DNA from: Tubiluchus corallicola
Lineage: Eukaryota > Animalia > Priapulida
NCBI GenBank assembly: GCA_030141605.1
Contig: JAQGDQ010000196.1
Location: 344,394 to 408,393 of the forward strand
Reading direction: 5' to 3'
DNA length: 64,000 nucleotides
In this document: piece after piece, positions 35,630-63,300 of the stretch
Numbering within the stretch: position 1 is the stretch's first letter
Layout: each line of letters begins with the position of its first letter
Made by a program: the position numbers and the translations under genes
The notes under the pieces: generated by a model
Databases searched by the model: none
Seen by the model: only the letters and a program-made list of their open reading frames with translations
Told to the model about the DNA's origin: nothing

Positions 35630-38380
35630 ATATTTATTAGTGTCAAAAATACATACAATGCAAGAAAAAACAAGGCATACATACAATTTCGATTTTGAAA
35701 TATACAAGAAAAAACAAGACACACATACAATTTCGATTTTGAAATATAATGATACTATATACAAACAAAACAATTACTAATAAAACAAATATTATTAAAT
35801 CTGCTTGTTAGTTGTATTAGTTACTTAAATGAAACGTTCAATGATTAGTATTTAAAATAAATTGTCATTCCTTAGGCCTCATTTTCAATGGTATGATTAT
35901 TACATAGTATATTGTTCTTCATGTCTTAAAAACGCTTTTTCAACATAATCAATAAATGCCTTAATTACTTCCAAATCATTACTTCTCATCAGGAATAAAA
36001 ATTTATCAGCATCGCTCATAAGGAAAAATTCTGGTATAATTACATTGATGCGATTATATAATTTCTTTCTAAAATCATTGTAATATGGGTTTTTATAACA
36101 AAGTGTAATTGGTCTTCGATTTCATTTCTTAAATAGTATGAGCGTATACCATTTCCAGCTGGGATTTTTCAAGGTTTAACGTACCTCCCTCTTTCAATAC
36201 ACAAAGTATGAGAGCTGATTCTCAGTTTTGTAAATTTTGTTATAGCATATTTGGAATAACCAGAAAGTAAATAGTTTCCTAGTTGATATTGTTTTTTGAA
36301 GGTACGATACGTTCGCAGTTTGTTTTGTCCATCAGGTTTGTTATTATTATGGATTTCTTCTTCCCAAAACAAAGTATAATCAGTTTTTATGAAGTAGTCG
36401 CTTAGGTGAAAACGTTGTCTGGTTATTCCACACGTGTTCAAAGCTAAATACACATAATGTATACTTAACAAAAGTAGTCCAACAAAAACAGCTAAGTTTC
36501 GGTTTTCGTTATAAGCAGTGGCGGATTGTATACTTAATTATTTTAATAAAAATGGGGGAAACGGCCACGTTCTGCCCTAGTCGCACATTTGCTTGATTTG
36601 TTATCGACATTCAAAAGAAATCTGCATAATTTAATATTGGCATCTTCGCTTGGCGCACTATCAAATTTAGTTTGAATAAGCGGAGAATTGGTTTTAATTT
36701 TAGTAATGCTAGGTCCCCATACACAAGAGCCATACAGCATGATAGGTACTACAGTATGTTCAAATAATTTGATAATAGTAAGTGGATTTGAGATGTACTT
36801 TTTCATGCAGTAAAAAGCTTTTAGGCATTTGTCTTTTAGTTTGGTGCAGCTTTGCCTGAAAGCACCGACCACTAAGTATTCAGAGGATTGGACTATTTTC
36901 AGCTTATCAGACCCATAGGTAAAGTTCAAGTCTTTTAGACTTCTACTTCTGCCTGCTTTGTTAAAAACAATAATTTCTGTCTTTTTAGTGTTAACTTCTA
37001 GAGCCCATTCGCTACAATAATTATTAAGCTTATTTAAGGCATTGTTGCAATCCTGACTGGGAACAAGAAAGTAAGACATATCATCTGCATAGAGAAGACA
37101 TTTGGTTTCAAAATTGCCTAGACTGACGGGATCGCATTCATTAGATGTGAAAACTGTTGGTAAGTCATTGATATACAAGGAAAAGAGAACTGAGCTCAAC
37201 GTACATCCTTGCTTAACACCTAAGGAGGATGCTATATCTATATACCGCCAGCGATTTTAACGGAGTAATTAGCTTTAGAGTAAATATTTTGCAGAATCTT
37301 AAGAAAATAACCACCTATATTATTTTATAGCAATTTATAGTACAATCCAATTCGCCAAACTGCGTCAAAGGCTTTGCGCAAATCAACGAAATAACAACAA
37401 AGTTTATGATTTGGTTTCAAAAATTTATCAATAAGTGTTTTTAATGTAAACATATGGTCACTGGTACGACAGCCTTTTTTAAATCCTATTTAAAATGCAG
37501 AATGTTATTATTAGGAATTTTCTAACCTGTTATTAAGAATGCTCGCAAATAATTTGCTTAAGCTGCTTGAAATGGCAATTCCGCTATAATTGTTTGGATC
37601 TGTTGCATTTCCACTTTTGTATATTGGGATGATGTGGCTTTGCTTCCACTGGGTAGGATAGCAGGAACCAGAAAAGACCAAATTTATTAATTTACGAAGA
37701 TAGGGAACCATAACTTCGCTTGAAGCATTTCCTTTATTAACCGTCTGTACCAGCAGTTTTGTTATTAAAACTGTTTAATGACAATCAGGATTTCCGTATC
37801 AGTCATTCTATAATCTAACTGAGAAAAAGAAGTGTAATTTTCTTCAATATACTCTGACAATTTTTTAGTTTTTCTCCAATGGCTGTCATTACTATTCAAT
37901 GAACTTCGAAAATGTTCTACCCAAACTATTGGGTCAATGTCATCGCCCTTGTTTAAGGTTTTTTTCTGGGTTCTGATTATCTTTCAAGTGTTTGATTAGG
38001 TTCCAAAAGACCTTCGGATTTTTAGTTTCCAGTTCAGTTAGTTGTTTCATAACACGGGCTTGATATTCCCTGTGTGCTTGCTGCTTGATCTTTTTATAAT
38101 ACCTCTGTTCTTTAAAGTACAGTTCTCGTAAGTTTCTATTATAAGGGGCGCTTTGCAATTTAAAATGCAAGTATTTTAGTCGGTTGTGGGCTGCTTTCCA
38201 TTGACTGTTAAACCATTTCTTATCTGGCCAGTGTTTTTGCTGGGCTACGCGTTTATTATTATTTAGAGTATTTCGTTCTTTAATTATCTTAGATGCAGCT
38301 ATAAAGCAAAATGGAATTAATGTTATTTACAGCCGCTTCAATCTCGTTCTCGTTTACATTATAATTAAAGCAATGTAGTA
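35630..38380 (-). mobile_element. Decayed 5'-truncated non-LTR retrotransposon (ORF2 pseudogene; tentatively RTEX-like)
   Basis: Collinear minus-strand fragments: NPKVFWNLIK (37940..38170), IPIYKSG..DPNNYSGIAISS.LSKLF (37511..37711), LFSLYINDL...LLYADD (36543..37199), KLRTY..FK...KLRISSHTL.IERGRY (36169..36471). Many stops and frameshifts. Confidence 0.9.
35661..35748. repeat. 44-bp tandem duplication in the LINE 3' UTR
   Basis: caagaaaaaacaagRcaYacatacaatttcgattttgaaatata occurs twice. Confidence 0.9.
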
Positions 38381-39252: not shown

Positions 39253-40590
39253 ATGGCCTGTTCATCGTCCAAAGACTACTCCATAGATATGGCGGCAATA
39301 TGGAAAAGAGCAAACTGGTCTGAAAGATTGTCCAGCCTGTTTGATAGTGGTACGTTGCAAGACGTTGAGTTCATCGTAGGTGAAAAACGCATCACAATAA
39401 GAGCAAATAAACTCGTCTTGTCGTTGGTAAGTCGAGTATTTTTTACAATGTTTTATGGATCACTACCAGAGGTCACTAACACACCTATTGAAGTTCCAGA
39501 TATCAGAGTGAAAGTGTTCAACATTTTTCTCGAATTTGTTTATACCGACAGGATTCCCATAACTGATTGTAGTGTGTTATGTCATGATGGGGTTCCTTCA
39601 GCATTTGAACTAATTTATGTGGCCAAGAAATATGACGTGAGAAGGTTGGAAAGCATTGCGGCTAAGTACATTATGTCACATCTGACAGTTGATAATGTGT
39701 GTGATGTCATTAGAGAAAACTATTTGTACGAAAACCGGGACGTGCACGAACAGTGCTATCAACTAATTGATTTGTACCCGCTGGATGTGTTTACGTCTAA
39801 GAGTTTCACAAAGCTAGCCTACACAGAATTGCTGGAAATAGTTAAGAAAATAAACAACAAAATTTCTGAATTATCAATTTATGAATCAGTTGTTGGATGG
39901 GCGCGGGCTCAATGCGCCCGGAAAACACTGGCGACTTCTACTGGTAACATTCGCAACGAAATGAGCGACGTACTGTACGAAATTCGTTTTCCCTTGATGG
40001 ATCTGCAAGAGTTTGCGGATGGACCCGCTCAGTCCGGCATATTAACCGATAGTGAAGTAGCTAACATTTTCTTAAACAGGCATGGATCATTAAACAAAGT
40101 ACAGCTGATTTTTCCCGGAGAAAATAGGTGCGATTTTATGCTAAACTCACAAGACTTTAGGGGTAGGCCTACGCTTGTCTTTAGAGTGCCAGTACAGCAC
40201 ATTGATGGACTTCAACGCGGAAAAGGAAAGTGGTTTTCCTCTAAACCATGTTATCCTATTGCGGGAGTGTCCTGGGCGCTAGAACTTAGGAAGTGTGGCC
40301 CACTTACCTGTAATTCTGAGACTGAAAAAGGCCAAAGTTGTTGTTTTCATTTCCGGTTTGAACCCCATTGTGCAGCAGAAGAACGAAGAACTAGAACATT
40401 GTTCAGGGAATCCAGGATAGTGCTGGTGAATCTTGATCCACAAAAAAGCATCGAAAAAAAGCTGGCTGAGGACAAAACACCAGCTATTTGGTGGGAAGAC
40501 AACTTCATTTCGTCACGTGACTTGCTGACATTTGAAAGTGGCTTTATTATTGCTGACGTGATTACAGTTTACTTTATACCATGTGTTTAA
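39253..40590 (+). CDS. Intronless BTB/POZ-BACK protein (BTBD1/2/3/6-like N-terminus) with C-terminal MATH-like domain; putative Cullin-3 adaptor
   Basis: BTB: DVEFIVG...ANKLVLSLVSRVFFTMFYGSL...FLEFVYTD...AKKYDV. BACK: ELSIYESVVGWA..QC...IRFPLM..EFA. The C-terminus (LVFRVP...GVSWALEL...NFIS..DLL..ESGFII.DVITV) resembles MATH/TRAF. First in-frame ATG at 39253; AATAAA at 40681. Confidence 0.85.
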   Translation: MACSSSKDYSIDMAAIWKRANWSERLSSLFDSGTLQDVEFIVGEKRITIRANKLVLSLVSRVFFTMFYGSLPEVTNTPIEVPDIRVKVFNIFLEFVYTDRIPITDCSVLCHDGVPSAFELIYVAKKYDVRRLESIAAKYIMSHLTVDNVCDVIRENYLYENRDVHEQCYQLIDLYPLDVFTSKSFTKLAYTELLEIVKKINNKISELSIYESVVGWARAQCARKTLATSTGNIRNEMSDVLYEIRFPLMDLQEFADGPAQSGILTDSEVANIFLNRHGSLNKVQLIFPGENRCDFMLNSQDFRGRPTLVFRVPVQHIDGLQRGKGKWFSSKPCYPIAGVSWALELRKCGPLTCNSETEKGQSCCFHFRFEPHCAAEERRTRTLFRESRIVLVNLDPQKSIEKKLAEDKTPAIWWEDNFISSRDLLTFESGFIIADVITVYFIPCV

Positions 40591-41055
40591 CTAAGACACT
40601 TCAAGCAAATAATCATGCTAGTGTAATTATAAGAATCCACGCGAAAATAATATTGTAATTTGCATAAAATGAGACAAACTAATAAAGATTAACCGCATGG
40701 CAGCCATTCTAGTGCATGAGACAAAATTTTCATGTTGCGTATTTGTGCAAAATCGTAATGGCTAAAATCTGAAAATCTGAATGTAATGTTTTATTTTTAT
40801 AATGCAACTCAGTTGTGCTGTTTTATAGCCTATTAACTGTTACCGCTGCTGCTGCTGTTGTTGTTACTAAGACTGATAGAATTTTTTTATAACGACGAAT
40901 AAAAACGAACAGTCTTAAATTTTATTATTCTTATTAATACTTAGTCATTCTTTATCTAATTTAAAATTTCAACTTGCTGATTTATGTAGAAATGTAGCGA
41001 GATTAGATTAATTAAATTATGCTCTCAAAACAGAAAGTCCAATGGAAGTGGAAGT

Positions 41056-41156
41056 GTTTTATTAACTAACACTGATTGATTATCTCTGTAAAGTTTTTAT
41101 CGGTGATTATCAATGTATTTTAATGGCAAATAAAGATTATTATATATACATATATA
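41056..41156 (+). mobile_element. ~100-bp 5'-truncated copy of the 3' end of the LINE at 60369-63940
   Basis: ttttattaactaacactgattgattatctctgtaaagtttttatcggtgattatcaatg...taatggcaaataaagattat(ta)n is nearly identical to the reverse complement of ~60369-60475. Confidence 0.9.
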
Positions 41157-41810
41157 AGCAGAATAAAGTTGGAAACAGGTGTTTTGCAGCACATTGATTC
41201 ATTGAATGAATATCTGCACCCTGACATAAAATACTGACTTTCAACACAGCCAATGTAATATCAGTTAGTATTCAATGACTTAAAGTTGATTTTTCTTGAC
41301 CTGTCCGTTAAGAAAAGCAAGCATATGACGGGTGCGGAAATTCATTCAACATATTACAAAAAAAGGGCCGATTCCACGTTTATTCAACATCAAGTTCCAT
41401 CGGTCTTTCAAAGTTAACCTAATATCGCGAAATTTCAACATAATTCAAAACGTGAATTGAAGCGATAACTAAATTTTGACTACCCTGTAGTTCCTTATAA
41501 TAAAATTTACTGCACAGTTTCATATCCAAAAGCATCTGTGTGATTACGTATCATTTAGATCAAGCAGGCAGCAGGTGTGTTTGTATAAGATTTTGTTTGA
41601 GATATCTTTGTTTACCATTGATGCAATAGAGTTGATGTATTTCAGTGTGTAAATAAATTTGATTGTCATCAAACTACATTGTGAAAAATCGATTTGAGCT
41701 GCAAATAAGTAGTTTTTGCAAATGAAAAAGCTACACAAATACAACAATTTCCCACTACGAAACTCATGTTGTAGTGTTCAGACGTGGAAACATCAGACAA
41801 TGTTCCTAAA

Positions 41811-42995
41811 ATGATACCAAGGAAAGTTCATGTCAGAGATATTGATGCAGCATTACACACTGGTTTAAAAAATCAGCAATCAGTTGATAAAGTCAAGAGA
41901 AATGCAAAAAGGTGGTTGCATCCGAAGGTATACACCATCCAGGAAATAGAAAATAAAAGTACAGTGAAACCTGGCGATAACAACTACTATCGTGATTGTT
42001 CAGTAACAAGCAATGAGTTGTATTACAAATTGCACCCACTTTTGAATTCTGCAAGGATTTTCGGTCTCTTTCACCTTCCGAAACATCGGCCCGAAAATGC
42101 TTCTCTGCTTGCCTCTTTTTCTGGAGCCACCTGGTGGTCGCTCGTGACACTGCTGTGTGTTACAGCAATATGTGCAAAGTCATTGAAATCTGACACTGGC
42201 AAAGCTGACCTGACGACAGCCACCGGCATTGCACAGTCGTTTGTCTTGTTCTTGGAGGTAATTCTGGTTTTGGTTAGATGGTTCACATTTGTTGCCGGAT
42301 TCAAAATGGCGAATGTTTTCTCAGAATTTGAGAAACAACTTCCTCGTTATATCAATCACAGTAAAGTTACTAACATCAAATCACTTACACAAACTCTCAG
42401 AGAAAATCGGCTTTCATGGGGATTAACCTTGATGGGCTGGGCGGTGATTATAAGTACTTTTTTGTATGCAACAATAAACAAGGTTTTCGAGAACCTGAAT
42501 TCAACTATAACTCTACGTTTGGTATTTATAAATACGGTTTATGTTATCTATGACAAGTTTCAGTTGGCAACTGTCATTTTTGCTGCATACATCGTCGTCT
42601 CGTTGTGCAAAATATTAAATTCTAAATTTAGTTTTCAACACGATGGCCTACGATTGGATACTGACGAAAAGGTGAATAATTTCTTGGACAAGCAAAGAGG
42701 ATTCATTCTTCTAATTGAAGTTGTGGATGAGACAATATCACCAATGCTTTTGATGATTTGTCTCGGAAGTTTCATGGTGATCGTTGTTCAAATTTATCTT
42801 TACAGCCATAATTATCACTCCGGTATTCCACCAGGTTATTTACAGGAATTTGTCCACGTGTTTTCTACTCTACAAAGTTTCTCATTCCTACTGATTCTTA
42901 TCAGCTGTACAGCTCTGCACGAAAAAGTCATGCAAGTTGAAAGAATTTTACATTCTATAAAACGAAGTCAATTGGGAGAAATGGCCAGATATGAG
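41811..42995 (+). CDS. Gr/Grl chemoreceptor variable exon A (N-terminus, TM1-TM6); predicted splice to 50166
   Basis: L.PLL.SARIFGLF N-terminal motif and six hydrophobic segments. Ends ARYE|GTAAAT (phase 0); read-through hits a stop after 3 codons. Confidence 0.85.
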
Positions 42996-44128
42996 GTAAA
43001 TACATGAAATAATTCTCAGACCTGGCACTCTTCATATGCTATGTAGATTTTTTTTATTTCAGGAAATATAAAGAATAAAAGCAAGCATGTAGTGATGGAA
43101 AGTTAAACAGCTTCTAAGAAAATAAAACAAATTAGAACTGTTTGGAAATTTGCAGCAAGAGTTAGTTGTACAAGTGTACAAGCCACTAGAGCTCTAACAA
43201 TAAGAAAACAAAGGTAACACCTTGCCAAAACACACTCGATGGCTTGAAACACTTTATACGTGAGTGAAGTGCAACAGATAAAAGAAAAATATATATTTTA
43301 CATTAACTGTTGTTCAAAACAATTCATGTGCAGGTATTATTGCCTAAAAGGATGATGTTCTTCTATTCTTAGCCCTTAGCAGTTCCAGTGTTGGAAATTT
43401 TTTTCAAGTTTCTTTCCAGGTCTTTGCATCCGAAAACTGATTACACGTTCAAACTAATAATTAGTTGTCTTTAATTAAGTTACTGCACACTTGATAATTA
43501 ATAATAAAACCATTGCCTCCATACTCAACCAAGATCAGTCTCTGAATCATGTGAGATGCAATTTAAAAACTTTAAGATAGAGTTAATTGCTTACAACAGA
43601 TGTAGAGACGATTGCTGCTTTAATCTGGTACTTTAAGTTAAAAAAGTAAGCGTCTTATATCCAACGCTTATCACATCTTGTTGATTCCTAATATTCCAAT
43701 GCCACCTTCCTGGTGGGTCAATAACTAGATATAGTTGCTGTGCTGCAAATATTAGCAGTGTGACCTGCTAATTTTATTCTATCTGTGAATTATTCCATCC
43801 ATTACATCACTGAGGCACTTATTGCAGTATGCTATTATTTAACAATAAACGCCAACAATAAATGTGTGCAAGGCTGTTATGCATTTGTCTAGCAAATGGT
43901 AAATAGATTGAAATTAAAAGCATTTGTGTTTACACTACTTTGTTCTGCACAACATTAGCAAGCAACAGAAAAACCACCTTATTTATAGCAAAAACAATTC
44001 AGGACTTTTAGATCACGTTCAGAATTATTGCAATCGAGAAGTACTCCTCGTATGCTAGTTCAAGAAAAGGAAATAAATATTACTCAAAGTTAAACAAGAC
44101 AGGTGTTTTCGATTTTTCTACAAATGAT

Positions 44129-45241
44129 ATGAAGAAATCTAAAGACGTTTCAAAGCAAGTTGTGAGTACCATAAGTTGCATAGCTTGGAAATCATGTGAT
44201 GACGATCCTTCAATGCCCATCAACCGTGAAATGGAAGAAAAGAATTTCACAGAAATTTTGATGATGAATGATATGTATAAAAGCTTAAAACCTTTGCTGC
44301 AATCTGCCAAAGTTTTTGGATTATTTCACGTACCAAATCAATACCAGGAGAGTTTTCGCATGCTGTCATATTTTTCTAGAAGCACCACTTGGTCGTTCAT
44401 TGTTTTTCTTGGTGTAGTGTCAATTTGCATAAAGTCTTTGGTTGCAGATGTACAACATGCTAACCTTACTACAGCCAGTGGTATTGCACAATCATTCGTC
44501 TTACTGTTGGAAGTAATTCTCACACTTGTGAGATTTTTTGCATTCATTGTTGGGTTCAAGATGAGAAAGGTGTTCATCGAGTTTGACAAGATGGCATGCA
44601 AGAGGAAATCATATTTTGCTAAATCTGATTCAACTACAACCAAAATTTCTGTAACTTTTATATCCTATTTCCTGGCAGTAATTGGATGGGTTACAATGAT
44701 TGTGACATTTGTTTATGCAGCAATTCATAAAGTAAAAGTTCATATCGGCAACGACAATAATACTATGGGCAACATAATTATATCAGCAGCATATCTCATT
44801 TACGACAAATTTCAACTCGCAGTGGTAATATTTCCTGCCTATATCACTACTTGTCTGTGTATCACCTTGATACAAAAATTTAAAAATGCAAAACTTGGTG
44901 AAACCACAGACCAGAATCTTCACGTCTTCTTAGAAAAGCAAACCAAATTCATTCATTTAATCAAAGTTATTGATGAGACAATGTCACCAATGCTTTTGAT
45001 GATTTGTTTCGGAAGCTTCATAGTGGTCGTTGTTCAAATTTATCTTTACAGCCATAATTATCACTGTGACATTCCACCAGGTTATCTACAGGAATTTGTC
45101 CACGTGTTTTCTACTCTGCAAAGTTTTTCATTCCTACTGATTCTTATCAGCTGCACAGCACTTCACGAAAAAGTCATGCAAGCTGAAAAAATTTTACATT
45201 CTATAAAGCGAAGTCAATTGGGAGAAATGGCCAGATATGAG
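44129..45241 (+). CDS. Gr/Grl chemoreceptor variable exon B (TM1-TM6); predicted splice to 50166
   Basis: Paralog of exon A (YKSLKPLLQSAKVFGLFH). Ends ARYE|GTAATT, phase 0. Confidence 0.85.
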
Positions 45242-46897
45242 GTAATTACATTAAATAGTATCTTATGCTTATAAGGGACAGTTGTAGATGACGGAATGCT
45301 CAAAAAATCAAATCTCAAGTTCTGTTTTTGCTTGCTAATGGCATTCTAACAAAATATTATAAAGCACCTTTGCAAATACAGTTGCAATTATAAGACCATA
45401 ATAAAATAATTAACTGATCAAATGAATTAATAATTTACGTGTGAATGTTAAAATGTTACAAACTACAACAAAATTGCAAATGCAATGTTGCAAAGGCTAT
45501 AAAGGCTACAAAGGTAGTTTTACAGTCTATTGTTCTGCTGGATTCTGCATATAAACAGATTGAATCACTTGAGCATGTATGTATAGGCTAACAAATTTAA
45601 ATGTAAGCTTCATCCAAGGCTTGAAGGCCTGAAAGGTGGCTGCACATGACAGTATATCAGTTTATCCCCAACAATTATAGTTCTTTGTATTTTAGCCAGT
45701 GCAGTTCATTACACAAGTTGGGGTAATCCAGGTATGAAACTGTCTACACCATTGAGACTTTGCCAGTGGTGTAAATCGTGCCATCAGCTGCAAGTGAAAA
45801 CAGAGGCAATAAGCACATTTACCCGTGACATCACGTAGTGTCACCTTTAAACGCACAAGATTCTTGTACAGATTTTGTAACTTAAAATTAACATTTATTA
45901 TCACGTAAAGTAAAATTTTGCATTTTAGCACACTATATTTCTTTTATAAATTACTCCTAGAGTCACGTCTGAGGACTTCACGTATTTGAAATTGAAAAAT
46001 TACAAAATCGTGTTTATCTTATTTGCAGTTAACTGTGCAAGGTCTGTGAAGACCTTTTTATTGCTAATTTGAAAGAATATGCTTTCGCTCATTGAATCAT
46101 AAATGTTGACAATGCGTTTGTTTGCCGCTCCTCATATTTTTGCTATGGACGTCTCCGAATGCCTAATGTTTGCTTATAAACTCTGCTTTTAACAGAGGCT
46201 TGTTATCTCACTAGTTTTTACCAAAAATTGTTTCCTGTCAACTACAGTTTTACTTGCTTCAAGAAGGTCGACCTATCACTACCAAGTTATTAATAAAAAA
46301 AATTTCTCGCCCTGTTTTTAAACCTGTTTTTTACTGTGGGAATGCCTCAGCATATTACCATAATTCAACGCTGTCAGTTCTTTAGAACTTCTGTCTTTCA
46401 GATTTTATGACATTTCTGACTTAAAAAATGACGAAGAACATGGACATTCAATCGCACACACACATTGTGCATTGCGCCAAAAAAAATTAAAGGGGCAAAT
46501 GCTTTTTTTAATGATTTATTGGCTCTTTGTGTTGCCAACTGATCTATGTTCATCCAGCAGAGGATTAGTGTTGCCTAGTTCAGCTTTAACTCATCCACCA
46601 TAGAAGCCGAGAATAATCGATTAATACGTTCACAAGACTTTGAGTTTTTTCTTAGTTATAGTTTTAGCTGGTAATGAAATACTATTTTTTGAGACATGTC
46701 GAGGACAATCGTGTGAAAGTAACTTCTACAAAGCTCACAACTATTTAAGTATAGTCTTTTTTAATCTGAGTTCAGGGACTATTAGCGATCACCCTGACGA
46801 TTATAAAATTAGTCATGGTAATATGAACACATAATTAATTAGTTAATTAAATTTCGATACCAAACTTGCAAGACAGGCGTGTAAAATATTAGAAATA

Positions 46898-46966
46898 CTG
46901 TCTGTATTTGAACCACTGCCCTTCTGCTTACAAGGCAGATGCTTCAGATCAATAAGCTACTTTATT
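46898..46966 (-). mobile_element. tRNA-derived SINE head or tRNA-Thr(TGT)-like pseudogene
   Basis: Minus strand gtagcttattgatctgaagca-TCTGC-cttgtaa-GCAGA-agggcagtGGTTCAAAT has an intact anticodon arm and B-box but a degraded D-arm and acceptor stem. Confidence 0.5.
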
Positions 46967-47540
46967 ACTCAGCGAAAAGTTTTAACATTTCCTGTCTATA
47001 AACTTTGGTATCAAAATTTAGTTATATGTGTTTTTGTAATATCTTTCATAACAATCTTGACATTACGATTATAATAATTAAAAGTGGTCTTGTTTACTCA
47101 AAACAAAGGCACAGTTAATAAACTTGGTACAACCAAAACAGGTTTAACTGCGAAGGTATAATAGTAGAAAGTACAATTTTAGTGTTTTTCATTCATGCAA
47201 TAATAATTTCTAAAATGAATGCCTTTTTATAATGAATGCTCATTATATAAGTCAGTTTCTTTTTTGACTTCGATCATGGTGTATAGCGTAGGAATTCTAA
47301 AGGAGAGAAGAAATCGCTGCAATTATGGGCAAACTGACTATTTACCCAATTATAAATGTATCAAAAGAAAATGTTCTCCAATGTTTCTTTGTTTGGCATG
47401 CAGCACTCAACCACATTTCCTTTGGCTATTGTGATCTGTTAATGCATCAGCTTGAGGCTTCTACGAAGGAACCTAGGTCACCAGAGTGCTTCAAACACTT
47501 ATACTTGAACGAAGTGATGTTTTTGTTAAATTGTTTCATA

Positions 47541-48677
47541 ATGGGCACCAGAATACCTTCTGCTCCAACAAATACTTTTAAGAACTCAGTAATAAAAAGT
47601 CCAACGAAATGGACACCAATTCAGACAATGGTTGGTGATGGAAAGCTTGCAAATAACGTGATTTCAGAGTCTGGCGACTTCATATTGTTGGACACAGTGA
47701 GTTTTTATAAAAGCTTGCATCCACTTCTAACGTTAGCTAAAGTATTTGGCCTATTTCACATTCCAAGTAGAAAAAACACGCAAAGGAGATTCCAAGCTCT
47801 TCTATGTGGCAGTACGACGTGGTCATTAGCAATGGCTGTTGGAGTCACAATAGTGTGTACCTACGACTTAATTACGGACTTGAGAGCTGCAGACTTGATT
47901 ACTCCAGCTGGTATAGCACAATCATTTGTACTTTTTCTCGAGGTTGTGAATACTATCATTAGATGGTTTGCTTTTGTTTCAGCTTTTAAAGTGACCAAGT
48001 TGTTTTCCAAGTTTGAGTGTACTACAGAAAACAGTGCCGAACGGACAAAACTACTTAGGCTCAAATTGTTTAAACGAGAGCTAAAAGACAGCACTGTCAG
48101 CTGGACATTAGCCTTTGTAGGATGGATTGCGATGAGCTGCACATTTTTAAACGCTTTAGTAGAGAAAGTGAAATATATCTACGAAGATACATCCATTAGG
48201 AGTTGCGTTTTAAATATCGTATTTTTATTCTACGATAAATTACAACTTTCCACGATCATGTTTCCAGCCTTTATTATAGTTGGTGTTTGTTGCACTCTGC
48301 TCTCCTACTTTGAAACTCAAAAGGAACCCCCGAAAGTCAATACCGATAAAAATGTGTTAAGTTATCTGAAGGGACAGTCAGCAATTATAGAAGTTATTGA
48401 AGTCATCGATGCAGCTATATCACCCTCGCTTTTCATGATTTGTTTCGTGAGTTTCATGGTAACTGGATTGCAAGTATATCTCTACAGTCACAACTATCAC
48501 TTTGGTGTACCAAAAGGTTTTATGCAAGAGTTTATATTCGTCTATTCTACTCTGCAAACTGTCTCGTTCTTATTAATTCTGATCGGCTGCACAGCTGTGC
48601 ATGAAAAGATTTTGCAAGCGGAAAGAGCGTTACGCAAAGTTGAACTTTATCAACTGGGTGACGTGGCACGCTATGAG
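47541..48677 (+). CDS. Gr/Grl chemoreceptor variable exon C (TM1-TM6); start uncertain (ORF open from ATG 47325)
   Basis: Paralog of A/B (YKSLHPLLTLAKVFGLFH). Ends ARYE|GTATAA, phase 0. ATG 47541 gives an N-terminus comparable in length to the paralogs. Confidence 0.85.
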
Positions 48678-48747
48678 GTATAATATTGGGCCTATACCAA
48701 ATTAATTCTTTTTTTAAGGCATGTCGCCTCTGAAGTGAGGAAAATTA

Positions 48748-49056
<309 letters not shown>

Positions 49057-50165
49057 AATTCTTTATTGCTATAAAATTTAGTAGTTTACTACCCATTCAA
49101 AAATTGACAGCATAACCAGTGTTTCCACTGCTGTGAGTATTAGTGTCAGGATAAAATAAAATTATGAGTAAAAACATGAGTGAAGCTATGATCATTACAT
49201 CGATTGCACAAAAGTCTACATTCATTTGACACGGTTCAGCGAGTACTTAACACAATTTACAATATTTGCAAGTAATAGTTTTGTCTAAGATATTAAAATT
49301 GTGTAAATATGAAATTGCATGAGTGGTTTTGATTTTTTTTGAGTTGGTGACACTACAAGTTGAATGTTGATAATAATAAAAAGGTGTGATTTGATATTTT
49401 GTATTAGGTCTTTTTGATGGCTAGCATGTTTTTAGTTCATTTTTGAATCCTTTTAGCGTCACTGCAGATTTTACATTAAATAGCTGAATACTCTTGCTTT
49501 TGTGTTAGTAACGGAAACAACACAGTAAAATTAAATAAAGCAAAAATAAAACAAAGCAAGAATAAAGCTCAGCGAAACAAAGCATAGACATAAAATATTA
49601 CAGCTTCTGAAACACACTGAGACTTGTAAAATCTGCATGTTACGATCAAAATAGAGTTTTGAAAATAATTTGTGTTGCCACTACTCAATGTTTAACGCCT
49701 TCATGCCGATTTTTATTTAGAATAATAGGTAAACAAGCAGAATGAAGCGAAGTATAAAATACACGACAATGTTTAGAGCGGCAAAATAATGTAAAATGGT
49801 CAGAAAAAAGAAAAAAATGCGACATGAAACAATAGTTATAACGAGGCAGCAGTACAATAATCATTATCGTTTATTAATATTATGACGACCAAATACTTAG
49901 CGCCAGTTTATCGATGAACATCACGTTTGTCAAACTGCTTGCCTTTGAATATTAATAAAATTAGGATGCAAATGCAGCTAAGAATTCAAGTTTATTGCAG
50001 CAAAATGTTTATGTTCACGGGTAAAGTCATTGGGTGAACGTAATTATCCGATGAGATTGAAAATGACGATGATGGTGGTGATAATGATTGTGATTGTTAC
50101 TCTGGTAATGACGAAAATGATAGTGATGGTGATAAATGAGAGCCATAATTGAATTGCTTTTGCAG

Positions 50166-50255
50166 GTACTTATTCATCTCCAACAACTATCATCAAGATC
50201 TATTGGCCTCACAATCTGGAAATTCTACGTCATCAATCGAAACTTTGCTTTTATC
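50166..50255 (+). CDS. Gr/Grl constant exon 1 (90 nt, phase 0/0): VLIHLQQLSSRSIGLTIWKFYVINRNFAFI
   Basis: Acceptor ttgcttttgcag|, donor |gtgagt. The peptide matches the Gr IL3/TM7a pattern (..F..QL.....LT...F..I.R). Confidence 0.88.
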
Positions 50256-50371
50256 GTGAGTTCAGTTTGTTGCTATTTTGGAAATATAGCTTCGCCCAGT
50301 TTAATTTTTAAAGTGGAGATTAGATTTTTGATCTTTTCACTGATGAACTCAATAAACAGTTTTGTAACGTG

Positions 50372-50460
50372 AGGCGAGTTGAGTAGCGGAGTGGTCATGG
50401 CATGCGTTTGTCAGTGAATGGCTCGTAAGTGCCCGGGTTTGATGCTCCCTGAGGGAAATT
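50372..50460 (+). mobile_element. Degenerate tRNA-derived SINE head
   Basis: A-box-like tagcggagtggt and B-box-like gggtttgatgc at tRNA-like spacing; no cloverleaf. Confidence 0.3.
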
Positions 50461-50883
50461 TCATTCGCCATGCTAATTTCTTGTTGCGCATATTATACCC
50501 ATCTTCCGTACATATACATATATATGAATGTGATTAAAACAGCTCTACCAGCTCAGTGGTTCATCTTAATGGCTATTCATGATAACGAGTTTGGCATTGA
50601 TCTCCCCAAAAAACAGTGGACCTATTATTAAGAGCTGGATTTTGGGTTGCAATACATTTGCAATGTATTTTATAAAGATTAAAAATAAAAACGTGCTTTA
50701 CCTAAAGCACCTTCATCACAAAACAAATTCATATTTTGCTTTGAGTTCTTGTTGTCAAATAAACTCTTGAATAAAAGTTACCAAGCTAGTTTGTTACTAT
50801 TGCATGATAAATTTATAACTGTTATAACGTTTATAACTGTTGTTGAGTTGCTTAGTTTAACAATAAATGTTGTTGTTTTGCAG

Positions 50884-51045
50884 ATTGTCAGTGGTATCTG
50901 CACGTTTTTCATCGTGATAGTACAATTTCATCAGACAATTATTGGAAAGCAACAGACAAACGTGACACTCCTTATGGACGCCTTTGCCAATGAAGCTTGT
51001 CATATCTGCAGACGATTTCTCAACAACCTTAGTGATCCTGATTAG
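50884..51045 (+). CDS. Gr/Grl constant terminal exon: TM7b (IVSGICTFFIVIVQF) plus 38-aa tail
   Basis: Acceptor gttgttgttttgcag|, phase 0. TFFIVIVQF matches the Gr-family signature TYhhhhhQF. Stop TAG at 51043-51045. Confidence 0.88.
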   Translation: MVSGICTFFIVIVQFHQTIIGKQQTNVTLLMDAFANEACHICRRFLNNLSDPD

Positions 51046-52800
51046 AAGCTTCGAGCTTGTCAACTTGCTGCTATAGCTTGACAAAACGCATCTAACTATG
51101 GTGCAAATTCTGCAAATTAAACAATATATGTCACTTTAATATTAACCGAGCAACAAAACGAAGAAAAATGAGATTTTTCTAAGCCCAGGGACAGATTGTA
51201 TATTTTTATCCACTCATATAAGAATGTGTAGGTTTTTTACCTACTCATTTTGCTAATTTGAAATTTGAACCTAATATTCAGACGCATAAGCTTTAGCCAA
51301 ACAAAGACAGCAGAGTTTTATGTTGTGTGTTGTTTTTTATATAAAAATTTATTTCTTTTTTTGAATAATTCAGAAGGACCGAATTTTAGGGTTAAATTAA
51401 AATATCAGTAGGTGGACTACTCTTACCCTGACTGGTATCAAATTGGTATATGGCTAGTGTTTTAAGTAAACTGCATTCTTATTTTTTTTTTATAAAATTC
51501 CATGCATTGCAAGCCAAAATCCAACTTTTAAAAGCAGGTTCATTGTTTTTATGGCGAGAATCACAGCTCAATTCATTACCTGTACTTTTGATAACATTTA
51601 AATTACACTTAATCAAACTACGGTTCTCTTGTTTAAGAATAATCTGAGGATGCGTTCGAAAGCTTTTACATGGAAATTGAGAAACAAGAAGCGAGTTGCT
51701 GTTTTAACTTGCCTATATTCTTGCCTCTACTGAATTGTTATTACCACTTTAGAACTTTAAAAATTTATAGTTTTCAGAATGTTTAGTGTATGTAAAATGA
51801 ATGTATGTATGTATGAATTATTTACGTAAGCCTTCCTTTTACTTATTTGAACTGAATCGAAACTAAAATTTGTAGTGATTTAAAACTTCTTGATTTGATA
51901 GCAAATATCGTATTATGACTATTAGCAGAACGCAGTAGAAATAGCTCGTTTCTATCAGCTCCGGTATCTAAAGTCAAATTAACAATGTTCATATTGTTAG
52001 TGCTACTAATCTTTATTAACACTTATGTTTATTATAATTACATATTTCTTTAGAGAACACGTCTTTGTGCGTTGTGATGTGCACATAACAAATAAAAGTC
52101 CGTTTCTGTATTTGTGGCAGTAGCTGCATTATTGTATTTTGAGTGTGCAGTGGCGATAATGGCATCTCTGTCGAGCAATGCCGAAACGTGCCGATTTATG
52201 ACTAATCAAGTGAATAAGTCTTTAAAATTACGTCTTCATTGGCTTTTAAGCTAACATTAAGCTTTCCAAATCTAAATCACCCATTATTAGAGTCCCTGTA
52301 TATTTAAATATATAGTTGTAAATATATAGTAATTCTATCCATTATTACAGTATGCTGCTATCTTCTGGTGGGAAAAACGCAAAAACAAGACAGGCTAGGG
52401 GATGAAAATAACAGATGACAGAATGAGAATGGCCATTTCGTTTTTGTTGTAAACCGTGACATTTACAAGATTGACATGCTCAAACAAATATGATCACGCA
52501 TAGGCAAATCACATTTATTACATTAAAACGTGCCTGTAATTGTTTGCGATGAATAAACGGTAGCTCGCGTGGATGTCATTGACAATTTAGCTTAATGTTG
52601 GTGTTGGAAATACTTGATTGCTCCTTCTTTCTGGCTAAAGCTGTGAGTTAAACTAAACGTTGTGTCTTCTAATTAATACCGCAGGAACTCATACGACTTA
52701 GACAACTTCATTTGTAGCTACCGAAAAAGTTATCTAGACGTGTTTAGTCATCTTGCTTCGCTAGAAGTGACCTGTTGGTGACACAGTTTTTAAATCCAAA

Positions 52801-53901
52801 ATGAAAGCACATCATAACACATGGACCATCGGACTGACTGGTTCACTTAAAGTCACGAAGGAGCACGTTAAAACACTATCTCCTAGAAAACTCAATACAG
52901 GTTCCCATAATGATTCCAACTGCCAATTTTACCAGAAATTACGTCCACTATTGATTTTTGCCACAATTTTTGGCTTGTTTCACATGCCTAACAGAAAGAC
53001 GCAGAAACGGTTTGGGTTGGTGGTATTGTCCTACAGTACCATGTGGTCTTTGACTATTCAGATTTTCGTCACAGTTCCAACTATATGGTCCCTTATGCGT
53101 GATACCAGTAAAATTGATCTCACAGCAGCAGAAGGAATTGCCCGGTTATTTGTCATGTTTATGGAAGTAACACTCACATGTATAAGATGGTTGGTATTCT
53201 TTGCTGGATTTAAACTGGTAGATGTCTTAGCAGAATGCAGAGAAGTCAGCAAAATTCAATATCCAAATATGCTGGTTACAGTCATCTCTGGGAAACAGAA
53301 GTACTTGGAGAAAGGAATATCATGGATATTTGCCACGTTAGGAGGGATCATAATTGTCTTTTCGATTATTACAGAATCTCACACTTTGTGGAAGCGGTTT
53401 AAAAGCGGAGAAGAAGAAATTTCATTTCTGCCGATTCTGATTATGTATTTGGTTTCTGACAAGCTGCTGTTGGCAACTGTGATGTTTCCTGCTTATATTA
53501 TAACTTGCTTTTCCTACGTGCTAATATCCCATCAAAGATCATTTCAGAAAACAGAAGAAAATCTTTCAGCTGAAGAAGTCATGTTGTTTTTGAAAAGACA
53601 TTCAAAGTACATTCGCGTTGTCAAGGTCATAGACAACGCTATATCTTCTACACTGCTGATGATCTGTCTGGCAAGTTTTATGGTAGTTGTAGTACAAATT
53701 TATCTTTTCAGTCACAATTTCTATGCTAACATTTCCCACGGATATCTGCAACAATATTTGTATGTCTACTCTACCATGCAGTCTGTGTCATTTCTGCTGA
53801 TTCTTGTTAGCTGTACAGCAGTACATGAAAGCGTTATGGAGGCTGAAAATAAGTTACATGCGTTGAACAAAGAGAGCCTGGGGGAGACAGCACGTTATGA
53901 G
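52801..53901 (+). CDS. Gr/Grl variable exon D (second cassette; constant exons not in window)
   Basis: YQKLRPLLIFATIFGLFH and six TM segments. Ends ARYE|GTAAAT, phase 0. Confidence 0.83.
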
Positions 53902-55919
53902 GTAAATTTATTGTATTGCATTTGTCTATCAGCAATATTTCACTAATTTCTGTTTTAAATCACTCATGTTTTGTGTGTAGGTTTGTATGTATTTATATAT
54001 TCTCTCCATTATCTATCGTAGTTTTTCGTACTTAGTATTTCTTTGTGTTGTCTTACAAAGAGATGATCTTGCTTACATGATTGCCTCCTGTTCTGAAAGT
54101 AGGGTGGGAGTTTAGCAGCCAAAACCTGAAATTGCTCAAAATATGGATTCCTCCATGGTGACCTTATTTTTGTGTTGGTTTTAGTATTGTTTTTTGTTGA
54201 ATTCTTTTATTCAGATAATAATGCAACACAGCTATCTTGTTGACTTTCATCATTTACACGAAATTTGATGATTATAATCAATTCCAAGCGATAAAGCGGC
54301 TAATGTGGAATTGTACTGTCTAGACATCCTATACCGCAGATCTTCTATTAATTAAATCAAAGCTGATTAAGATTAAATTATTTTTCATTATTGGTCTGCA
54401 GGGTGTAATTAGATTTCACGAAATCTGATCTTGATAAAATCTTTCCGAAATTTTAGTAACTCAGTAAACCGACTCACGTTCTAACTCCTTATTTTAACAG
54501 CTGCAAGAAAACAACAGAAAATAAACACTAGAGGCATTTACCTTTACCAACCCAACTATGAGAAAAATCGCGAATTTCGGATAGTATCTGCTACATAGGC
54601 CCCTGGGTCTATTTGCTCTTAAACCCAAAACATTGAGATCGAATGTTGTACAAGCCAACCGAGGCTATACAACCATAAGTCGTGCTTTAATATGGTGTGC
54701 GGTAAAACCGCACAAGTAAAAATGACACAAGAAAAAAACATGGTAAAAGTGGCACAGGAAAAATGGCACAAATGGAAATCGCACAATTGAAAATGGCATA
54801 TATGTTATTTTGATGCAATTAATTTCTATAAAAAAAACTAGAATGCGCCCAGTAGGAAGCAAATCTCTGCCAAAGGCGAACAATCCTAAACTTATTCGTC
54901 TGATTCCTTTGATTAAAAAAATTTACCCCAAAGATAAACCAAGCAAACATACAAAAATACACCTGTATTGGTATTATATAGACTAGACTCACAAAATATT
55001 TGTTCATTAAACAGATTTATAATCAATAATGCACGAATGTCCCACATACAATTTGAACTAGCCTTCTACACGTATTTTTTCTTCCTTATTGTTTCTTTTT
55101 ATGCATTTTGAATCATGTATTGGTAGTATTGCTGCTGGCACTGCTACCTCTTGTGCTCCAAAAATGTTATAGTCCCAAGTTATTTTTAGTATGCTTTATG
55201 ACTGCCATATAATAATCGTTTTGTTACTTTGTTGTAACACGACAATTAGACTAATACTTTGAGTGACAGATATGAAATTAAATGTGTTGTAGCACAAAGG
55301 GTCAGCAAACAAGAACGTTATCAGCAAATTGGCAAATAACCCGATAGCATGCAGGACAACTTATTGTAACTACAAAGGACAATTATGCTGTGGTGTCTGT
55401 TTGTAGCAGTTGTTTTGAATTGCGATTGTGTTTTGCAACAATATACGATGATGTAAAATAGCCTGTCTCATCAAAAACGCGATAAAGCATTTCTAAAACT
55501 CAATGTAATGAAACAAGAAGTCAAGTTATAATTATTTTGTGCGGACTTCAAGGTTTCCATTGTGATTTGGCCAGTTTAAAAGAAACACCTACCTAATCAG
55601 TCAGAGACGATCATTGGCAAAATTTAGCAATTATTAAAAAGCTTGCTTGCCACTGTCCAGCTTAAGTAAGTTTATGTGTTGACTGTCCTACATTATGTGG
55701 TTCTGTGACACTTGACATTTCTGTTGTTCCATTTAACAAATTGAGCCATAAAAACTGCAGTCTTTTAATCCCGGTCATATTACCAACACCAATTGTATAA
55801 GTACCAAATTTATTGGCAAATAAGCCAATTAAGGAAGCACATAGATTTCTAATATGAACGTGTCTTACTAGTAGCCAAATATAGATCAAGCTCCATTTTG
55901 TCGTCTGAAGATAAGTAAA

Positions 55920-57047
55920 ATGGAGAAGTCTCGTGATGCAAGGTCCGTTGACTTGGACAATAATCCTAAACATCTAAAGCAAGAAGAGGAGATAAACACT
56001 GAGTCACCTCCCACAAGTGGCAATAACTTCAATGTTATTTTTGAAACTGGTTTGTATCAGCAACTAAGGCCACTGTTGACAAGCGCAATGTTTTTTGGTC
56101 TCTTTCATATTCCTAACTGCAGAAAGAAAAATGCACTATTTGGACTTGTATTGTTGTGCTCTCGTAGCACCATTTGGTCATTAATTAATCTGATCTTTGT
56201 CACTTCAACAACTGTGCTCTTGTTTCTGATTGATTATGAGGATATTGAGACAGTGATACTCACAACGCCAACAGGAATTGCAAAAATGTTTGTCATTTTA
56301 ATGCAGGCAACATTATCTTTGATAAGATGGCTGATCTTCTTTGCTGGTCTCAGAATGGCACACATTATGGAAAAATCATATGAGGTTCAAGAAGCAGAAA
56401 AAATCTATTCTTCTCTTATTCCTACAAAAAAGAACAAGAAGAAAAATTTCGAGAAAAGAATGGTATGGAGCCTGACTGTATTTGGATGGATTGTTATTTT
56501 TTACTCGTCTGTCAAGGAAGTTTTTGTTTTCTGTGAGATATTTGTGGAAGATCTGGAAAAGGGAGCCATTTTTGACATTGTGGCGATAATCATACTTTTC
56601 CTGTATGACAAATTTCTGTTGGCAACCGTCATGTTTCCCGCATTTACCATAACGAGTTTATCTTTTATATTAAAGACTAATCAAAATTTGGCACTGAAAA
56701 TGGAAAATCTCTCAGATGAAGAGATTATGTTATTTTTGAAAAGGCAAACGAAGTATGTTCATCTGGTCAAGGCCATAGACAACGTCATATCTCCGACATT
56801 GTTGATGATCTGTCTGGCAAGTTTTATGGTAGTTGTGGTACAAATTTATCTTTTCAGTCACAATTTCTATTCTGGCATTCCCCCAGGTCATCTGCAGCAA
56901 TATTTGTATGTCTACTCTACCATGCAGTCTGTATCATTTCTGATGATTCTGGTTAGCTGTACAGCAGTACATGAAAGCGTTATGGAGGCTGAAACAAAGT
57001 TACATGAGTTGAATAAAGAAAGTCTGGGGGACACAGTACGTTATGAA
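55920..57047 (+). CDS. Gr/Grl variable exon E (second cassette; constant exons not in window)
   Basis: YQQLRPLLTSAMFFGLFH and six TM segments. Ends VRYE|GTAAGT, phase 0. Confidence 0.83.
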
Positions 57048-60368: not shown

Positions 60369-63300
60369 TATATATATATATATATATATAATAATCTTTA
60401 TTTGCCATTAAAAACATTGATAATCACTGATAAAAACTTTATAGAGATAATCAATCAGTGTTAGTTAATAAAAACTTACACTGCTGAAGGCAAATGCGTC
60501 AGTGCAATCTAAACTACTGTGCAGTAATGACGAATAAAAGCAAACATATTTACAACTATACACAAAAAAATATAAAAAAAACTATGATTTAATTAATATG
60601 GCCGTGGGTATATGAATTCGGAATTAGTGTGTATGTTGTCGTACTGGTGTGATGGTATTTCATATCTGGTTAATATTAGTGATTTTAATTTTGTTTTAAA
60701 TGCTGATAGGGACTTGATTTGTTTAACCTGTAATGGTAGAGAATTCCAAAGTAAAATTGCTTGTTTGATTACAGAGTTCGTTCCATAGTGGGTATTTGTC
60801 CTAATTTGTTTTAGATTGCTTGTTCTGGAATTAACGATAGGATTTGGAAAAAAGATAAATCTGTTATTCTGGAATGGTTTGCTGATGTTGTTAATATATT
60901 TATATATAAAAAGCAGAGTAAAATATTCTTTGTGTGCTTCAATGATTGGGAATTTTAAAGTTTTTCTCAGGTTAGTTGTTGAAGCTTTGAATTTTTGTCT
61001 ACTTGCCTTGTGTTTGTATGAGTACCCAGCTATCAATCTCAACGCATAGTTTTGAAGGAGATTTAATTTTAAGTAATTTTCTCTTTTGGTTTTTTGAAGT
61101 AGCGTACATCCATATAAGAAGTGTGGTAGAACTAAAGTTTTATATATTAGTGTTTTAGTTTCCTTTGTTAGTTGCCCTTTAACTTGTCGGAGATATGATG
61201 TGCTAGATGCCATTTTTGTGTATATGTTATTAAAGTGATCATCCCATGAAAGATTATTGTCTACTTGTATGCCCAGGAATTTAACATTGTTAGTTTTTTT
61301 TGATTACAGCATTATCTATTGTCAAAGTGGTTGATGATGCATCATTAGTATTTAATGAGGGTGACAGTATCATGAATTCTGTTTTGTCATTATTCATTTT
61401 TAGCTTGTAATGACTAAATGCCATATTTATATTTTTTATATCTTCTTCTAAATAATTTTTTGCAGTTTGGACATTTTCATGGGCTATGTAGATTGTAGTG
61501 TCATCAGCGTATTGCGTTATTTGTGAGTGTTTTAATACACTGGATATGTTGTTTATATATAGGCAAAATAATAACGGACCTAGTAGTGTTCCTTGCGGTA
61601 TACCTCTGTTTAACGTGGCCCAGTCAGAAAAGTTGGTTGTATCTAACTTTACTCGTTGTTGTCTATCTTTGAGATAATTTTGTATCAGTTTTAACGATAT
61701 CGAATCTAATCCGATTTGTTTTAAATTATCGTAAAGTAGTTCGTGATTAATGCTATCGAAAGCTTTACTTAAATCCAAAAATGCTGCTAAAATGTATTGC
61801 TTGTTGTCTAAACTATGTCTCCAATTTTCTGTTGTGTGTATTAGGGCGTCAATGGTTGAATGATGTTTACGGAAGCCAAACTGATGTTTTGATAAAAGTT
61901 CATGTTTATTTACATATGAATTTATCTGATCATAAATTACCCTTTCCCAAACTTTGCCGAAACAATGGATTACGGAAATTGGGCGATAATTCATGGGATC
62001 ACATTTTGGATCTTTTTTATGGATTGGAGTCACATTTGCCATTTTACATACCGTTGGAAATTTGCCTCTCATAATTATCTGATTAGCAATGTAAGTCATA
62101 TGCGGGGCTATTACAGATGCGCTATCTTTTAGAATTTTGATAGGAATATCTGATGGTCCACTCCCTTTGTTGGAACTTAGGTTATTTAATATGTCGTTAA
62201 TTTCTCCTACTGTGACGCTTTTGAATGAGAATACTGTGTTAGACGATTTGTTTTTTAATTTATTAATTATATTATTGCTAATATGAGAAGCCACTCCCTT
62301 AAAATTTCCAAGATTCAGGAATATTGCATTTAACGCGTTGGCAATATCTTTGGGTTTTGTAATAACAGTGTTGTTGATCTTAATTTCGTCAACACGCGTT
62401 AGTTTGTTACGGCATTTATTTATTACATTGTTAATAATTTTCCATTTTTCTTTGGTATTTGTTGCGTTTTTACATTGTTGTTGTATATGTTTATTTTTCA
62501 AGCATTTATTAAGATTATTAAATTGATTTCTCTTTTTTTTATAATTGTTATGATTGTTTTTAGTTTTGTTCTTTTCCCATATATTATACATTCTGTTTTT
62601 CGCTATTCTTAGTTTGCCAAGTTCAGGTGTTGTCCAGGTACTTTCGTTATTGAGTTTGCTTTGTTGTGGGATTTGCTTTACGTTTTTATATGGTGCATGT
62701 ACATTAAGGCAATATTCGACATTATATGTCAGAATATTAACTTGTGTATCTATTTTATCAGTCATATATATGGAGGTCCAGTTCATTTTTGCTAAGTCGA
62801 TTAAGTATGAATGTTTGTTGTATTGGGCGTAGTCTCTCATTAAATGCCAGACTGAATTTTGGTTATTATTATGCTGTGGGGTCATTTATCTACTAATATT
62901 GTGAAATGATGATCTGAATAATCACACGGGAAAGTATCATATGCTACGAAATTATTGTTACTATTCGAAATGAAATGGTCGATTACTGTAGCTGATGTTT
63001 TAGAAATTCGAGTAGGTTTATTGTTGTTAAGTATGTGGACATTATATTGTTTTAAAAGCTCTGTGTATGTTTTGTATGCCAGTGTGTTTGTAGCTAAAAT
63101 ATCAAGGTTGAAATCGCCCATTATAAGAACTTTTTTATTTTCGAAAACACTGCGTTCTAGTTCTTCACTAAAGTATTTGAAAAATGTTTTGTGTTTGAGA
63201 TTGGGTGGTCTATATATGGTTCCTATTACATAGTTCTCAATGCTGCACCAAACAGATTCAATCTTGCCGGTTCTGATGCCTTTCATTTCTTGTGGTCTCA

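Follow-up and report, generated by a model that had tools for sequence, protein, structure and literature searches.

The window analysed here is a stretch of 64,000 nucleotides (positions 344,394 to 408,393 of contig JAQGDQ010000196.1, assembly GCA_030141605.1, deposited as Tubiluchus corallicola), to which all coordinates below refer, and it contains a cluster of five long, related exons, A to E, that resemble most of a gustatory receptor (GR) gene, together with two short exons, K1 and K2, which lie between the third and the fourth. All seven are on the forward strand, with A at 41811-42995, B at 44129-45241, C at 47541-48677, K1 at 50166-50255, K2 at 50884-51045, D at 52801-53901, and E at 55920-57047. 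We consider it probable, at roughly four chances in five on the strength of the sequence, that A, B and C are alternative first exons with their own promoters, each spliced to K1 and K2 so as to give three channel subunits, and that D and E likely belong to a second module of the same kind. One gene giving rise to three receptors is thus the best reading of the region between A and K2.

A sequence-only reading made beforehand had described three intact paralogous exons that all end at one and the same codon, each followed by a GT donor in phase 0, and its coordinates, frames and terminal RYE|GT are reproduced here; its inventory was right for A, B, C, K1 and K2 and incomplete in that the paralogous exons D and E were overlooked. 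Exon A has 395 open codons, encoding a GR-family channel from the N-terminus through helices S0-S6, and ends at the phase-0 donor GAG|GTAAAT; B has 371, with its first in-frame ATG at 44129 and the phase-0 donor GAG|GTAATT; and C has 379 counted from 47541, with the phase-0 donor GAG|GTATAA, although its start ATG is uncertain because the frame is already open from 47301. D (367 open codons, donor GAG|GTAAAT) and E (376 open codons, donor GAA|GTAAGT) follow downstream of K2. There are no internal stops in A, B or C, all of which terminate in RYE|GT in phase 0, and the phase-0 donor falls at the same codon in all five large exons, with similarity lost directly after it. Comparison of A with B illustrates this well, with 30 of 30 nucleotides identical in the last exon bin and then 17, 8 and 10 of 30 in the intron, and read-through of the donor meets a stop after 3 codons in A, 10 in B and 1 in C, within the range of 1-10 codons given previously. 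The N-termini of the five exons are unrelated, each exon has its own ATG, and identity to exon A is 40% for C and 38% for D. When the bases of the window were shuffled 50 times, no stop-free run exceeded 173 codons, so the large open reading frames are far beyond chance.

K1 is exactly 90 nt long and in phase 0/0, with the acceptor TTTTGCAG| and the donor |GTGAGT, and K2, also in phase 0, has the acceptor TTTTGCAG|IVSGICTFFIVIVQF and continues through the motif TFFIVIVQF and a 38-residue tail to a stop, so that the phases and good splice signals claimed for both are confirmed from the letters. Polyadenylation-type signals (AATAAA/ATTAAA) lie beyond K2 at 51116 and 51396. The motif in K2 fits that of the seventh transmembrane segment (TM7), (T/S)Yhhhhh(Q/K/E)(F/L/M), with a change of Y to F that is classed as conservative in the part of the literature available to us (PMC7746228), and it is the motif of the pore helix S7b. 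K1 would encode S7a, which belongs to the anchor, and would be the ancestral 90-bp GR exon, having the same size and phase as the ancestral third GR exon in the accessible text of PMC13388675. Two phase-0 introns flank this 90-nt exon, and the first of the three ancestral 3' introns, to judge from positions unaligned to an insect gene, appears to be absent; we infer that this phase-0 intron has been lost here.

No second copy of K1 or K2 was found in the window by tblastn, by blastn or by scanning both strands exhaustively, position by position and without gaps, and the best non-self scores were 27 for K1 (self 152) and 31 for the K2 core (self 93). Nor is there a K-like exon in the A-B and B-C gaps, where the best open candidates preceded by AG score -5/3 and -1/4. 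As a calibration, the ends of the paralogous large exons score 83-145 (30 aa) and 32-86 (18 aa) against each other, and the test for K1 is stronger than that for K2 because the 18-aa calibration overlaps the best chance score. A generic scan of the window for T/S-Y/F...Q-F returned K2 and three non-hydrophobic chance strings. The earlier statement that there is a single TM7 exon pair, with none private to A or B, therefore stands for the window as a whole after the tBLASTn check.

Assignment to the GR family draws on both profile and structural comparisons. At the Pfam 7tm_7 gathering cut-off of 26.6 bits, exon B matches with 35.1 bits (E 1.2e-8, positions 1-311 of the 370 in the profile) and exon E with 29.4 bits (E 6.8e-7, positions 1-314); A, C and D have no match to this profile singly, giving two of the five exons, and align with B and E throughout. 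The profile coverage stops about 10 residues before the donor and leaves 56-59 positions uncovered, which is approximately what would be supplied by those 10 residues, 30 from K1 and 15 from K2 as far as QF, and this supports the joining of the large exons to K1 and K2. An AlphaFold model of exon A has seven long helices after residue 67, numbered here S0-S6 by their order in the model, hydropathy segment counts being too noisy for the purpose. Compared with 48,161 chains, its eight best matches are all insect GR, odorant receptor (OR) or Orco structures at Z 16.8-19.9, with the next at 8.5; those to Orco, BmGr9, AgamOR28 and MhOR5 have Z 18.8-19.9 over about 300 aligned residues at a root-mean-square deviation of 4.0-4.7, and the top 16 matches found by Foldseek likewise all belong to insect GR, OR or Orco. 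The proposed GR-family (7TM-ion-channel) fold of the large exons is thus confirmed at the level of modelling, by the 7tm_7 matches of B and E and by the model of exon A, which comprises S0-S6 only.

By sequence these exons stand alone. Searches with exon A gave no homologues, an alignment of the exon proteins compared with 1.84 billion cluster representatives had no match at E 0.001 and no homologue in a word search to E 10, searches of the PDB sequences with this alignment and with K1 and K2 gave no match, and no relative was found in metagenome contigs. The large exons are therefore a sequence-orphan clade in the collections searched. In the ESM Atlas, 7tm_7/DUF267 clusters were reached at 0.94-0.96, just below the recognition threshold, and are a lead only. 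By analogy with the family, the spliced products are predicted to be ligand-gated channel subunits, with chemosensation the most likely role.

Joining the exon coordinates gives products without internal stops of 478 aa for A, 454 aa for B (371+30+53) and 462 aa for C, in agreement with the lengths predicted earlier. The anatomy is of the Drosophila Gr39a type, with tandem long exons that each have their own ATG and donor, and with no private C-terminal exons in the window. Each large exon would be transcribed from its own promoter and translated from its own ATG; in a transcript starting at A or B the first donor would be the end of that exon and the first usable coding acceptor that of K1, so that the large exons further downstream would be skipped as intron, as in Gr39a. 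A, B or C joined singly to K1 and K2 would then yield three predicted seven-helix ligand-gated channel subunits with an identical pore helix, and heterotetramers of these GR subunits are plausible by analogy.

The pattern of divergence among the large exons also speaks for this reading. Upstream of about residue 300 of A, the proportions of synonymous (pS) and nonsynonymous (pN) differences are 0.68-0.84 and 0.34-0.48 in all ten exon pairs. Synonymous sites are thus near saturation, yet every frame and donor is intact and pN stays lower, which marks the five exons as old and under selection. Over the last 95 codons (S5-S6), by contrast, A and B are 89% identical, and their 4-fold sites differ at 3 of 30 positions versus 24 of 39 upstream; for D and E the corresponding figures are 4 of 30 and 19 of 35. 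The homogenised tract is about 285 nt long with a sharp boundary, extends from 42711 to 42999 at the 3' end of A and from 44957 to 45245 in its partner B (both on the forward strand), and covers approximately the membrane half of S5, S6 and the last cytosolic loop. Where A and B encode the same residue, the codon is identical in 71 of 81 cases within the tract and in 39 of 98 upstream, and for D and E in 66 of 77 and 48 of 88. The A/B difference nearest the donor is at 42962 in A and 45208 in B. With the tract boundary set after the A-B comparison, 3' codon identity exceeds that of the 5' part for A-B (p 3e-11), D-E (p 2e-5) and A-C (p 0.002), and marginally for B-C (p 0.053), whereas none of the six cross pairs between A/B/C and D/E shows such homogenisation (p 0.18-1).

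Homogenisation of S5-S6 within A/B/C and within D/E, and not across them, suggests two modules, and we infer gene conversion that would be confined to each module and to the S5 membrane half, S6 and the last cytosolic loop. Selection on synonymous sites is a less likely cause than conversion, as the tract is about 285 nt long and A/B and D/E carry different synonymous states. Conversion between neighbours may keep the S5-S6-loop region, which would pack on the shared S7, alike within each module, and may be favoured since it preserves this fit, although proximity alone could also explain it. In solved GRs, so far as the accessible text of PMC12635824 describes them, the cytosolic S4-S6 and S7a form the anchor and S7b lines the pore, while S2-S6 line the ligand pocket and S5 couples the ligand to the gate. 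Because S5-S6 are homogenised, the differences between A and B would lie mainly in S1-S4, from which most of the specificity may derive. The different ligand pockets proposed earlier thus apply with a qualification, since S5-S6 form part of the pocket and are 89% identical between A and B.

Several observations weigh against this account. The joins of A, B and C to K1 are predicted from the letters, and a sixth sequencing run (X6), guessed to be RNA, yields three short repeat pieces with nothing on the exons and is no evidence either way. A common upstream motif was looked for among the five large exons, and no convincing one was found. The model of exon A is of middling confidence, with a mean predicted local distance difference test (pLDDT) score of 63.8, the other four models score 42-47, and the Foldseek E-values are 1.2e-3 or weaker. 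D and E are large exons in the same cluster with no visible TM7 partner. Short-read DNA contigs were available from runs X1, X2 and X4, which are the probable source sample, from X3, a second study, and from X5, which is divergent and has the same species label; none bridges an AAT/AGT/GAA microsatellite at 48743-49056 (unstranded) in the C-to-K1 intron, the sole unbridged join of the module. Among the differences listed, four of the five single-nucleotide polymorphisms in exon A change a residue, and X2 and X4 (low depth) have a two-base change at 47756-47757 in exon C that converts FGLFH, apart from this variant invariant across all five large exons, into FGLLN.

The mostly residue-changing polymorphisms in A would fit a reading in which only C is spliced to K1 and K2, leaving A and B, and also D and E, as orphan duplicates whose TM7 exons were lost or never existed, or as the source of truncated six-helix proteins made by read-through and polyadenylation. 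AATAAA or ATTAAA does occur 9-160 nt past the donors of A and B, as is common in AT-rich DNA, and the window offers no TM7 exon for D or E. We nevertheless judge this improbable, as frames and donors have stayed intact despite near-saturated synonymous divergence, A and B swap their 3' ends (the signal is weaker for C), and a subunit lacking S7 would have no pore and only part of its anchor, given the structures described in the accessible text of PMC12635824. D is moreover conserved in the divergent run X5, in which a contig over 52824-53183 has 45 differences in 360 positions; another over K2 (50876-51075) has 13 in 200. The indels among the differences listed (12 of 21 and 12 of 29) all lie outside the large exons and K1/K2.

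A, B and C might instead be mutually exclusive internal exons behind a common upstream exon, either non-coding or short and coding, or behind a spliced leader, all under one promoter and selected by splicing. Exons A (AG at 41645 and 41774) and B (44011) do have in-frame AG sites a short way before their ATGs, but the pyrimidine tracts are weak, and C and D have no such site in frame. Each exon has an ATG and an unrelated N-terminus of its own, and K1 would face competition from any internal acceptor placed before B or C, which makes this arrangement very unlikely.

An assembly artefact, whether separate complete genes with collapsed TM7 exons or a false join at the microsatellite, has still less to commend it. 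Contigs do break at the repeats shared by A and B and at the microsatellite, none covers a stretch in full, and the best-covering run, X1, may itself be the source sample. Against this, the window contains no N, and contigs of X1 and X2, which break at stretches common to A and B, overlap from the A intron to B and from the B intron to C at flat depth and tile both gaps without extra sequence. A single 4321-nt contig of X1 covers K1 and K2 and enters D at a depth of 178, like its neighbours. With matches taken at 85% likeness, X1 covers K1/K2 to a depth of 178-197 and nearby unique DNA to one of about 160-200, which shows that K1/K2 is not several copies collapsed into one. The second study, X3, also covers much of the locus, including A for the most part, some of the A-B intron, the end of B with the intron that follows, and sections of both the K2-D and the D-E gap. 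One X3 contig (44785-45569) combines B flanks with the A-type letter at each of the 13 sites from 45066 to 45208 at which A and B differ; it may be a converted allele or a contig artefact, and X1 has a comparable swap at D/E, of the sort that contig bubble-collapsing produces. Short repeats of high copy number, with very high contig depth, lie between the large exons at 41050-41160, 45580-45660, 46880-47080 and 54740-55050.

Alternative first exons that share K1 and K2 therefore remain the preferred explanation for A, B and C. The window contains no K-like exon either in the D-E gap or from E to 64000, and D and E probably make up a second module, whose shared exons would lie beyond 64000. That K1/K2 is the sole TM7 pair of the cluster and reaches D and E by trans-splicing between pre-mRNAs is scarcely credible: the 7 kb after E contain no TM7 exon and no second copy appears in X1 down to a likeness of 85%, but the window simply ends after E, matching at 85% likeness would miss a second pair whose proteins were about 60% identical, and D and E are homogenised mutually and not with A/B/C, as expected for a different S7. 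A broken element related to retrotransposons without long terminal repeats (non-LTR), with a reverse-transcriptase match, occupies 60593-62885 on the reverse strand inside what would be the E intron.

Among the neighbouring genes, an intronless Kv1/Shaker potassium channel gene at 26538-28031 on the forward strand (Pfam BTB_2 and Ion_trans) bears on the identity of the host. Its best BLAST match is a tsha2-like channel of Priapulus caudatus (610 bits, 66% over 468), with the best named non-priapulid match at 510 bits. In quick trees (50 of 120 matches; 19 named matches, cores only; cnidarian, kinorhynch, loriciferan and nematode rows absent) it groups with the Priapulus channel with an approximate likelihood ratio (SH-aLRT) support of 98, in a clade (100) that also includes a further Priapulus paralogue, apart from arthropod Shaker. 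On this one gene the host is likely to be a priapulid or a near relative of one. Directly upstream of exon A is an intronless gene with BTB and BACK domains (39253-40590, forward strand), the C-terminal 146 residues of which have no Pfam match and are by eye what we take to be MATH-like. The remaining features are a second broken non-LTR retroelement with a reverse-transcriptase match (36169-38326, reverse strand), a pair of overlapping frames at 24898-25439 on the reverse strand with an HTH_psq match, which is likely a decayed piece of a DNA transposon, and a tandem array of about 17 copies of a 19-nt unit at 247-585.

The suggestion that the locus would be an independent system of chemoreceptor diversification if its host were not an arthropod is only partly upheld, since the grouping of Kv1 with Priapulus makes a non-arthropod host likely while an independent origin is not borne out. 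It would be a known kind of system in a phylum that is likely new, and the architecture itself is not new. What is new here is the likely second module and the homogenisation of the S5-S6 tract within each module only, which points to helices required to fit a shared pore; the link from pocket to gate through S5 in insect GRs, as given in the available part of PMC12635824, agrees with this. If the splicing is real in a priapulid, an outgroup to the arthropods, automated annotation likely misses GR repertoires outside arthropods, because these proteins are unmatched at E 0.001 among the 1.84 billion representatives. Two questions could then be put to the test: whether this design goes back to a common ancestor or arose several times, and how a single pore helix serves several pockets. 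The locus is a natural domain-swap series. We put forward tentatively, and with considerable doubt, the broader proposal that the variable-exon and shared-pore design is a general and possibly ancestral protostome route of GR expansion, that the priapulid GR repertoire is sizeable, hidden and spread over several modules, and that conversion within each module matches the S5-S6 gating and anchor helices to its own pore exon, such that modules would be sets of receptors compatible in assembly.

In vertebrates, the clustered protocadherins and UGT1 also place variable first exons on constant exons, and parts of the variable exons of protocadherins undergo conversion; the proteins are unrelated to those encoded here and the likeness is one of analogy only. 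The protocadherin/UGT1-style description given earlier is thus apt for the layout of variable on constant exons and misplaced as to precedent, the closest being the splicing of insect Gr and Or genes (PMC13388675, in its accessible part). Drosophila Gr39a, Gr28b, Gr23a, Or46a and Or69a have, like this locus, tandem large exons with their own ATG and GT donor and small shared C-terminal exons, of which Gr39a has three and the locus here two. Splicing is demonstrated at the Drosophila loci, whereas here it is proposed, in a host that is likely not an arthropod and for exons to which no sequence relative was found; exon copies in Drosophila are gained and lost, and conversion among them is mentioned once in the accessible portion of the same paper (PMC2204066). 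In the literature outside most subscription journals we found no paper on priapulid GRs or on such splicing outside arthropods.

The solved channels BmGr9 (8vc1), DmGr43a (8jm9), DmGr64a (8jme), Orco (8z9a_A), MhOR5 (7lic) and AgamOR28 (8v3d) share with the proteins described here the S0-S6 fold and a TFhhhhhQF signature, at 7-11% sequence identity, and differ in the 38-residue tail that follows the motif here. Non-arthropod gustatory receptor-like (GRL) genes also have the TM7 motif and 3' phase-0 introns; they are few in the two species covered, with three in Trichoplax and four in Nematostella, and a variable/constant layout is unmentioned in the accessible parts of these reports (PMC5850775, PMC7746228). 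In Blattella germanica, by contrast, the available text of PMC6175461 describes the layout in 26 Gr genes with RNA-seq support and a maximum of 13 isoforms; the receptors compared here are Gr51-94, among them Gr60a-m with 13 isoforms. In early hexapods, including the firebrat, the ancestral GR is given as a long exon, one of 69-72 bp, one of 90 bp and a terminal exon, all in phase 0, and annotators of these genomes assume the variable-exon layout as routine (PMC13388675, same portion). Cockroach and early hexapod GRs thus resemble the locus here in their long first exons, shared short phase-0 end exons and 90-bp penultimate exon, and several 'cores' per array are anticipated by their annotators (PMC6175461, PMC13388675, each as far as accessible). 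They differ in having a separate second exon of 69-72 bp (PMC13388675), which here would be fused into each variable exon, so that more of the anchor region would be duplicated with every copy, and it is that end of the exons which is homogenised.

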